Notes: generated by a model from the sequence alone, not told the origin. Shown: positions 51,720 through 55,483, counted from the stretch's first letter. The stretch is 64,000 bases of DNA from Escherichia coli (GCF_041248615.1 NZ_CP158426.1); one strand, 5' to 3'. A program made the numbers and translations.

Positions 51720-52434
51720 TCCAGTCTACCGTACAGAATCAGTTGTTCCAGAATAGCCTGCTGTGTTGTTTTCCGCTCTCTGGTCAGTCTGTCCAGAGCG
51801 CTTTTTGCGGATGGCGATATCTTTACGTTGATTTGTACCCGTTTATCTTTTTTTCCATCGATAAACTGTTTTCTGAATGCATTGTGCATCTTGTCGAAAA
51901 ATCTTTCTTTTGCAGCGAATCCTAGGTGAAATTCTTTTGGCGTCAGTAAACAGGGTGTGTCTGTGGGGAATAACATTTTTAGTAAAACTACAATGGCAAT
52001 ATATCTTTCGTTATCATTTACAGGATTAAACCAGGAAAGATATGTGGGTGAGATACGTGCATCAATATATTCCCATGCCCATTTCAGTTGTTCGGTATTC
52101 TTTTTAAGCCATTTGGCTTCGTTTCTCTTTTCGAGTCCCAGCCAGTTTTGATGCATTATTGAGATAATCCGATCTGCTTCCCCATAAAGGATTAACGCAT
52201 TAATCCATTTCCCTATAACATTCAGTCGTGTTTCATGACTTGAAGGAATAATTGTCATGGGGTTATCCTTCATAACGATCACCCCCTTCAAGGCAGAGTT
52301 GAACTCAGATTCATTATTAAGTTTAAGTTTTTCGGGAACTGTATAGACTGGCCCCATGAATCTCCAGACAACCAATATCACTTAAATAAGTGATAGTCTT
52401 AATACTAGTTTTTAGACTAGTCATTGGAGAGCAG

Positions 52435-52800
52435 ATGATTGATGTCTTAGGACCGGAGAAACGCAGACGGCGTACTACACAGGAAAAGATCGCTATTGTT
52501 CAGCAGAGTTTTGAACCGGGAATGAAGGTCTCCCTTGTTGCCCGGCAACACGGTGTGGCAGCCAGCCAGTTATTTCTCTGGCGCAAGCAATACCAGGAGG
52601 GAAGTCTTACTGCTGTGGCCGCAGGAGAGCAGGTCGTTCCTGCCTCTGAACTTGCTGCTGCCATGAAGCAGATTAAAGAACTCCAGCGCCTGCTCGGCAA
52701 AAAAACGATGGAAAATGAACTCCTTAAAGAAGCCGTTGAATACGGGCGTGCAAAAAAGTGGATAGCGCACGCGCCCTTATTGCCCGGGGATGGGGAGTAA
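52435..52800 (+). CDS. insC: IS2 transposase InsC (OrfA)
   Basis: [56 protein letters not shown]... matches IS2 InsC. Confidence 0.9.
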
Positions 52801-53663
52801 GCTTAGTCAGCCGTTGTCTCCGGGTGTCGCGTGCGCAGTTGCACGTAATTCTCAGACGAACCGATGACTGGAAAGATGGTCGCCGCAGCCGTCACTCAGA
52901 TGATACGGATGTGCTTCTCCGTATACACCATGTTATCGGAGAGCTGCCCACGTATGGTTATCGTCGGGTATGGGCGCTGCTTCGCAGACAGGCCGAACTT
53001 GATGGTACGCCTGCGATCAATGCCAAACGTGTTTACCGGATCATGCGCCAGAATGCGCTGTTGCTTGAGCGAAAAACCGCTGTACCGCCATCGAAACGGG
53101 CACATACTGGCAAAGTGGCCGTGAAAGAAAGCAATCAACGATGGTGCTCTGACGGGTTCGAGTTCCGCTGTGATAACGGAGAAAAACTGCGAGTCACGTT
53201 CGCGCTGGACTGCTGTGACCGTGAGGCACTGCACTGGGCAGTCACTACGGGCGGCTTCGACAGTGAAACAGTACAGGACGTCATGCTGGGAGCGGTGGAA
53301 CGCCGCTTCGGCAACGAGCTTCCGGCGTCTCCAGTAGAGTGGCTGACGGATAATGGTTCATGCTACCGGGCTAATGAAACACGGCAGTTTGCCCGGATAT
53401 TGGGGCTTGAACCGAAGAACACGGCGGTGCGGAGTCCGGAGAGTAACGGCATAGCAGAGAGCTTCGTGAAAACGATAAAGCGTGACTACATCAGTATCAT
53501 GCCTAAACCAGACGGGTTAACGGCAGCAAAGAACCTTGCAGAGGCGTTCGAGCATTATAACGAATGGCATCCGCATAGTGCACTGGGTTATCGCTCGCCA
53601 CGGGAATATCTGCGGCAGCAGGCCAGTAATGGGTTAAGTGATAACAGGTGTCTGGAAATATAG
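52758..53663 (+). CDS. insD: IS2 transposase InsD (OrfB, DDE)
   Basis: 301-aa ORF overlapping insC in the -1 frame; matches IS2 InsD. Confidence 0.9.
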
Positions 53664-55483
53664 GGGCAAATCCACTGTATGAGACATAATTAACCAGAAC
53701 CAGAATGCTGCAATTTCATTTTTTCTGATCCATTCAGGTATGTGATTATCTGCCAGATTATTATCATTCAATAAATGCTCAGTTGTTTTATTTTTCCAGT
53801 CATATCTATTCACGTTATAACCGCCTTTATATTGTTTCATCTGATTACGCCTCAATCGTTTTCTTTTCTGGTGATTTTCACCATCACATGTCAGTTGTAT
53901 ATGCAAGGGGATCAATAAAAATATCACCCTGCAAGCACTTCAAAGCTGATTATGGGGATATTCTAGAACTATTCACAAAACTATTCCAGACATATCAAGA
54001 ACTATTTCTTGACCTATTCATAATAAAATAAAACATGCTATCAACTACGGCTCATATTCTCCTTGGGGGTGTCGTTGTACTGTTCGACTGTTCTTGTGGT
54101 CAGATTAACAATCTGAAGAGTAAAAGCGACAGTAATCTGTCTGTTATAGTGGCGATAAAAACACTGAATGCGCATCCTGTATGTGAAATCCTGTCATGTA
54201 GAGCAGTAAGCAATGACAGACATGCATGTTATATGTGAAGGGGGCCGGGAGACGACATAATCAGTATGGCTGTCATTCTGGTTGTAAAACGCGATCACTT
54301 TCCGGGGGTAAAAGATGATATGGAGGTTGACAAACGGTTTGCTTCGGATTGTCTTTTCTGGGGCCTGAAATACGAGGGCAGAAAAATAATTCCAGAGTAA
54401 ATCTGCTCTGTTTTTAGGACAGAAAACTCCATGCTGGCTGTAAAAGTGAAAAATTAACACCCAGTATGTATGGAAGTCTGAAGATGTTGAGAATGTCGGT
54501 ATGATACTATATACACATATTTTACTAAGTATTTTTACTAAGCATTTCAGTAAGTGTTATACACGTATTTTCATAAACACTTCTACAATTGTTTTCGTTA
54601 AGCATTGCTATACACATCCAGTTTAGTAAATCTTTACGTTAACTAAATCAGTTTAATGCTGCTGTAAAACCTTTCTGCTTCAGCAATCAATCTGCTATTC
54701 GATTTTACTGATGTTACGTTTAACCTTTCCTAAGATTTCGAGTTTCGACGTTAGCATGAGAAAAGTATCTTTACGCTAAATCAACCCGAACTTTCCTGAA
54801 GTAATCTGACGTTTTTTTCGATGTGCTTACGACGATTCTGTTAAACGACTTTCTGGATGTTTTGATAACAATCAGATTGAGGCATTAACGATTCCTGACG
54901 TTTTCTTTTCCGTGTAAGGTCATTCTTTTTGTCATGAGGTTTCTTCTTGCATTGCGAAAGTGTGATGAACGGTTTTGGTGTTTTTGATTCAGATAAGGTT
55001 TACGTTATCGATGGTTAATCGTTTTTATGGTGCGTAGTGAAACGTAACTTTTTCAGGATGAGAAAATCGATTCTGATGTTGGTGATTTTTGTTCTTGTGG
55101 CGGGGTTTATCTGTAAACAGGTTTTAAACGTGTCATTCACATCCGTGATTGAGTTGTGTGATTAAGCTGTAGGTTTTGGGGTTGTTGTTGATTTGCATTA
55201 CCAGGAAGCGTTCTGGTTGCGTTTCTGGTGTTTTGTTCGAATGTTCTGTGGATCCTTTTCCCTTCTGACTTTTCTCGTTGTCCATGTCGTTTTTAAATCC
55301 ATTCGCTGTTCTTGAGTGTTTTTACCCTGCGTGTAGAATTATCTTTTCGTTCCGGGATGGTTTGTTCCGTTTCAATCACTCTTAATCAGAGAGTTGTAGC
55401 ATTGCTCAATGCCGGATGCCGTAAAGTTTTACCGCGGTGATTAATGATGTGAAGTCAATCCAAATCAACGGAGATCTCTCATC

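Follow-up and report, generated by a model that had tools for sequence, protein, structure and literature searches.

IS2 carries a 42-bp left (IRL) and a 41-bp right (IRR) terminal inverted repeat and transposes by way of figure-of-eight and minicircle intermediates, with a junction promoter termed Pjunc (PMC3299598). The closest described counterpart of the locus analyzed here is the K-12 copy IS2A (NC_000913.3 381260–382590), which lies in yaiX. It is 1331 bp long, has imperfect 42/41-bp repeats with TA...CA ends, contains orfA and orfB (insC/insD) with an A6G frameshift site, is flanked by a 5-bp duplication (ATTAC), and cuts its host gene into two in-frame fragments. By ISfinder convention, a copy is assigned as an isoform above about 95% nucleotide identity to the reference IS.

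We analyzed a 64,000-nucleotide stretch of the Escherichia coli NRZ14408 genome (NZ_LT599825.1), referred to below as the window, in which record position equals window position plus 2,339,671. An element in this window shares the traits listed above, with CTGTA as the duplication. Unlike IS2A, it differs by 60 substitutions, at 13 of 301 OrfB residues, and by a C13A change in IRL that produces an outward-facing ATG. Our reading, to which we assign a probability of about 0.93, is that a complete minor-subtype IS2 transposed into a 262-codon gene of an integrative island, giving a simple, strain-specific disruption. The event is ordinary, nothing new in kind, and can already be gathered from the RefSeq annotation; it has little significance beyond annotation, other than as a clean, fully resolved example of IS2 simple insertion.

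A complete IS2 between two copies of CTGTA

The element fills exactly the 1331 bp between the two CTGTA copies, and its parts are as follows.

52339–52343, unstranded: left copy of the target-site duplication, CTGTA (direct reading; a single CTGTA at empty sites)
52344–53674, plus strand: IS2 (IS3 family), minor subtype, complete (gap-free alignment to IS2A)
52344–52385, plus strand: IRL, 42-bp left terminal inverted repeat, starting 5'-TA and carrying C13A (gapped IRL/IRR alignment)
52435–52800, plus strand: orfA, InsC/TnpA-like, 121 aa, helix-turn-helix (HTH) repressor (Pfam, NCBIfam)
52752–52758, plus strand: A6G slippery motif, site of the -1 programmed frameshift giving the OrfAB transposase (motif located)
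52758–53663, plus strand: orfB, InsD/TnpB-like, 301 aa, DDE/rve catalytic domain (Pfam, NCBIfam)
53634–53674, plus strand: IRR, 41-bp right terminal inverted repeat, ending CA-3' (gapped IRL/IRR alignment)
53675–53679, unstranded: right copy of the target-site duplication, CTGTA (direct reading)

A sequence-only reading had placed an IS2 with both ends and identical 5-bp flanking repeats at 52339–53679, and this span indeed comprises the 1331-bp element with its 42/41-bp repeats and both CTGTA copies. Direct reading of 52100–53900 gives the left junction as ...GGGAA CTGTA / TAGACTGGCCCC... and the right junction as ...GGGGCAAATCCA / CTGTA TGAGAC..., with junction 30-mers GGGAACTGTA / TAGACTGGCC and CAAATCCA / CTGTATGAGA. 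The element ends, TAGACTGG... and ...CAAATCCA, are imperfect inverted repeats that align with a 1-bp gap. The probability that two 5-bp flanks match by chance is about 1/1024.

Alignment to an IS2 reference, which the sequence-only reading had proposed as its check, covers 1331 bp of K-12 IS2A end to end with 0 indels and an identity of 95.49%, marginally above the isoform threshold. OrfA differs from K-12 InsC at 1 residue and matches Pfam HTH_Tnp_1 (5e-19) and the NCBIfam model 'IS2 repressor TnpA' (273.5 bits, cut-off 229), while OrfB matches Pfam rve (8e-20), rve_3 and HTH_21 as well as the NCBIfam model 'IS2 transposase TnpB' (700.8 bits, cut-off 597). The two frames overlap at 52758–52800 and are joined by RefSeq in a single 'programmed frameshift' CDS, 52435–53663. 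All IS2-defining sequence features that were checkable are present, among them both inverted repeats and the orfs that the IS2 transposition route requires, and the element is complete and presumably active.

RefSeq labels this copy just 'IS3 family transposase'; we suggest that the annotation be corrected to an IS2 isoform. The element belongs to a common minor (A13) subtype of IS2. Across the 5,426 complete E. coli genomes, copies at least 99% identical to it occur in 1012 records, and the best copy is 95–99% identical in 5859. IRL position 13 is A in the subtype copies compared (loci L001, L005 and L006) and C in K-12-type copies.

Excision restores a 262-codon gene and matches empty sites

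To reconstruct the site in silico, we deleted IS2 together with one CTGTA (1336 bp) and used the resulting 1165-bp junction as a query. The locus is present in 561 genomes, and in 497 of them coverage of the query reaches 80% or more. Identity is 99% or higher in 287 records, which answers the suggestion in the sequence-only reading that strains with the uninterrupted locus be sought. In at least 24 genomes the excised junction is matched full-length at 100% without gaps, so that the claim of reversibility in silico holds. Uninterrupted loci have one CTGTA at the insertion point. Because empty sites have a single CTGTA and the excised junction matches them at 100%, it was the insertion that produced the duplication. 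Alignment of the excised window to strain ECCNB12-2 is gap-free across 17.4 kb, and no substitution is met until 3.8 kb leftward or 2.4 kb rightward of the site. This was therefore a simple insertion, accompanied by neither deletion nor rearrangement.

Excision also joins the two minus-strand pieces into an in-frame ORF of 262 aa (789 nt), with its ATG at 53840 and its stop at 51716. The frames match because the two ORF pieces stand one frame apart and 1336 leaves a remainder of 1 on division by 3. The restored ORF is identical to WP_000816188.1, a 'hypothetical protein' annotated as a CDS at empty sites such as those of ECCNB12-2 and F374. Thus the two further claims of the sequence-only reading, that the reading frame is preserved across the insertion and that the interrupted gene can be reconstructed, are borne out, and its call was accurate; a length other than 1331 bp with frames that fail to match, which it had named as refuting, does not occur. 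Together, these comparisons support a simple, recent and computationally reversible gene disruption.

We propose that an IS2 of the A13 subtype would have entered codons 54–56 in the opposite orientation to the gene by the two-step figure-of-eight/minicircle route, and that filling in of a staggered 5-bp cut at CTGTA would have left the flanking duplication. This would have taken place in the NRZ14408 lineage after acquisition of the island, and the full-length 262-aa protein would no longer be made thereafter.

The insertion is confined to one genome and is probably recent

Of 5,426 complete E. coli genomes, only NRZ14408 itself carries the exact insertion, defined as the IS and its flanks at 100% identity. 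Ten other genomes cover at least 80% of the IS-plus-flanks query and carry different insertions. IS2 matches 13 places in the NRZ14408 genome, and a second copy, at NZ_LT599825.1 100990–102320, is 100% identical to the one described here and has its own duplication, TCTGC. The single-genome occurrence, the empty sites (at least 24 of them identical), the undiverged flanks, the identical sister copy, and the undamaged orfs and inverted repeats support a recent, lineage-specific insertion. The sequence-only reading had deduced a young event from the ends, the repeats and the preserved frame; in our analysis the word recent rests mainly on the strain distribution and not on the intact duplication. 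An intact 5-bp repeat is a weak clock because 10 bp change rarely, and identical IS copies are a weak clock because gene conversion may homogenize them.

Elsewhere in the window (33129–35721), the intergenic region between topB and gdhA holds IS1397 (plus strand) with IS1414 (minus strand) next to it. This double insertion is also found in 1 of the 5,426 genomes, NRZ14408, and many strains have IS1397 alone there. Used as a clonal marker, the IS1397/IS1414 pair revealed no close relative of NRZ14408 among the 5,426 complete genomes, and because the collection has no such relative the age of the IS2 insertion is not tightly bounded. It could then be argued that the insertion dates far back, has been inherited stably and seems unique simply because close relatives are missing from the collection, the IS1397/IS1414 configuration being likewise unique and leaving no near-identical genome for comparison. 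We consider this unlikely, however, as empty-site islands from many unrelated hosts are, apart from the IS2, essentially identical to this one, there are zero differences between this IS2 and its sister copy, and the orfs, inverted repeats and duplication are all undamaged.

Fate of the two gene fragments

IS2 lies antiparallel to the interrupted gene and breaks it at codons 54–56 of 262, which leaves the following pieces.

53680–53840, minus strand: 5' fragment with its ATG at 53840, codons 1 to about 55 (ORF reading)
51716–52343, minus strand: 3' part, codons about 55 to 262 plus stop, with a putative MatP-like/ribbon-helix-helix (RHH) C-terminal region (ORF reading, profiles)
51716–52357, minus strand: hybrid ORF of 213 aa, the RefSeq intact CDS WP_223716019.1 (predicted ORF)

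The 5' piece reads into IRR and yields a truncated product of 68 aa that ends at 53634. The 3' piece is open from an ATG at 52357 within IRL, which fuses 5 IS-encoded residues in frame to residues 55–262; the sequence GGAG stands 4 nt upstream of this ATG, which is created by the C13A change of the minor subtype. As a general matter, a minor-subtype IS2 inserted anywhere in a suitable frame would give an annotatable fusion ORF in this way, through the IRL ATG and its GGAG.

Because the first ~55 codons and the promoter are separated from the remaining 207 codons, the full-length protein is lost. More than 1.4 kb, including the antisense IS2, now separates the 3' piece from the native promoter region, and a scan for an outward-facing sigma-70-like promoter at IRL returned none at its threshold. 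On these two grounds, loss of the gene's function is the most likely outcome. The best sequence noticed by eye, TTAAGA-17-GATATT (8 of 12 positions), was considered as an outward promoter in IRL and rejected as too weak. We expect no polar effect, since the next gene converges on this one and no other follows it in its own direction.

Alternatively, the insertion may have remodeled the gene, with truncated residues 55–262, the MatP-like/RHH DNA-binding half, being expressed by read-through or IS-derived transcription. The in-frame hybrid ORF running from 52357 to 51716, the GGAG 4 nt before its start, the confinement of its ATG to the A13 subtype, and its listing by RefSeq as an intact CDS all fit such an outcome. 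Nevertheless, we think it quite improbable, given the distance to the native promoter, the result of the IRL scan, and the absence from the hybrid ORF of the conserved N-terminal motif (W37, FW.WL region); moreover, the ATG marks a lineage of the IS rather than anything specific to the CTGTA site. A repeat-induced misplacement of IS2 in the assembly, for which one could cite the multicopy state of IS2 in NRZ14408 and the listing of the record as linear, can be dismissed with near certainty, as a misassembly would not restore the frame upon excision or perfectly duplicate 5 bp of a target found once at empty sites.

With disruption by IS2 as the preferred reading, two RefSeq entries should be revised. 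R2K29_RS11555 (WP_223716019.1) is the 3' part of the IS2-disrupted gene with an IS-derived start and not a separate gene, and R2K29_RS11565 is the 5' fragment of that same gene.

The interrupted gene probably encodes a DNA-binding regulator

Searches of NCBIfam, PHROGs and PADLOC with the 262-aa protein gave no match, and its best indication in Pfam, RHH_1 (E = 0.085, 13.3 bits), falls below the cut-off of 20.5. An exhaustive HMMER search collected 43 representatives, clustered at 50% identity, with E-values of 1e-3 or better, and among 32 family members 4–5 have hits to RHH_1 or RepB-RCR_reg, with E-values down to 7e-6. A profile built from the 32 members aligns at positions 158–284 with residues 8–134 of MatP (E = 0.0013), which is nearly the whole MatP length, and the C-terminal region of the protein here is weakly MatP-like; the extreme C-terminus of the profile matches CopG-type RHH DNA-binding proteins. 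An AlphaFold2 model of the 262-aa protein is all-helical (pLDDT 76), and a search with it found no convincing structural neighbors. The gene most likely encodes a DNA-binding regulator. Searches by tblastn with the interrupted protein returned no phage copy and only 4 records from the plasmid collection. The ratio dN/dS is 0.50 against a 70%-identical homolog, and this value, the family of 43 representatives and the conserved synteny described below indicate that the gene is real, though fast-evolving.

The gene belongs to a three-gene module made up of a GTPase gene (minus strand), a gene for a 317-aa protein without a family match (plus strand, 50766–51719) and the RHH/MatP-like gene (minus strand), with module coordinates of 49779–51719 and 51716–53840. 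The 317-aa gene and the interrupted gene are convergent, with stop codons that overlap by 4 bp, and the GTPase gene is transcribed divergently. PADLOC gave no match for the 317-aa neighbor. This arrangement is kept in homologs of only 25–37% identity, the most distant at 25–28%, whose convergent partner has about 275–318 aa and is 27–69% identical to the 317-aa ORF of the window. The two uncharacterized proteins of the module diverge much faster than the GTPase (27–69% versus 50–90% identity). The homologous islands also carry AlpA, YagK/YfjJ (inovirus Gp2-like), DUF932, RadC, DUF987 and CbeA/CbtA genes, and the interrupted gene is thus a backbone component of CP4-57-like integrative islands. 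A literature search on the CP4-57-like island module found nothing relevant. The locus may find wider use as a natural knock-out of a conserved gene in this module, for which there are many wild-type strains with an isogenic island.

The region upstream of the gene contains one further feature.

53949–54019, minus strand: putative promoter/operator of the interrupted gene, a sigma-70-like site plus GAATAG repeats (function inferred)

The sigma-70-like site is the only one on the minus strand within the scanned interval of 51500–55600. Four repeats with a GAATAG core (RAMCTATTY on the plus strand) lie at 53966–54019, 134–179 bp upstream of the ATG, with spacings of 12, 21 and 12 bp, and overlap this site; 4 of the 5 matches to the RAMCTATTY pattern in the whole window fall there. 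The 70%-identical homolog also has four GAATAG copies upstream, at a regular 11-bp spacing. The repeats are a plausible candidate operator for the putative RHH protein.

The 1.6 kb between the interrupted gene and a gene of the inovirus Gp2 family (53841–55483) are AT-rich (38% GC), contain no annotated gene and no ORF longer than 88 aa, and gave no match in an Rfam scan that covered the whole window. A similar gene-free gap, of 1.9 kb, is seen in the distant relative L012 and is absent from L014 and L015.

IS2 has entered this locus repeatedly

Insertions of IS2 into the homologous segment of related islands occur in EC12, CDE2901-yvys, ECE204, VTB96933v and WCHEC025985 (loci L005, L006, L007, L016 and L017), with perfect 5-bp duplications CCCAT, AACAA, CCTCC, CATCC and TAAGT. 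Like the NRZ14408 insertion, each is a complete 1331-bp IS2 in this gene or in the AT-rich spacer upstream of it; they differ from it in position and duplication, in lying within an island variant that is about 85–90% identical and, in 2 of the 5, in being K-12-type IS2. These five are independent events, so that six independent insertions, of both subtypes, fall within about 1.65 kb corresponding to window positions 51716–55483. Overall, IS2 insertions are present in 11 of the roughly 561 genomes that carry the locus, whereas a rough calculation from genome-wide IS2 density would predict about 1.

The search joined same-strand pieces only and thus detects same-orientation insertions alone. 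An apparent orientation bias, in that all other IS2 insertions share the orientation of the NRZ14408 copy, was rejected for this reason.

It is conceivable, though doubtful, that IS2 has here removed one member of a conserved module of CP4-57-like islands and that this gene and its spacer are struck beyond chance. If this were true, NRZ14408 would offer a naturally occurring mutant in which to study a function of these islands in regulation (or in replication/maintenance control), and the repeated insertions might reflect selection against that function and not mere target preference.

The surrounding island

The island adjoins ynjB and extends over approximately window positions 43700–61000 as a degraded CP4-57-like element, beyond which comes a gene for a YadA-like adhesin. 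The annotation of the window includes no integrase. Decay is evident in frameshifted DUF4942 and ProQ/FinO genes, a truncated DUF5983 gene, an IS1 remnant, and transketolase and transposase fragments. The second IS2 copy of NRZ14408 (6001–7331 in locus L001) lies 2.3 Mb away within a paralogous CP4-like island, where it cuts another hypothetical gene in the equivalent GTPase-to-Gp2 interval. In strain F374, the region corresponding to the island of the window runs on into the aerobactin (iuc) cluster.
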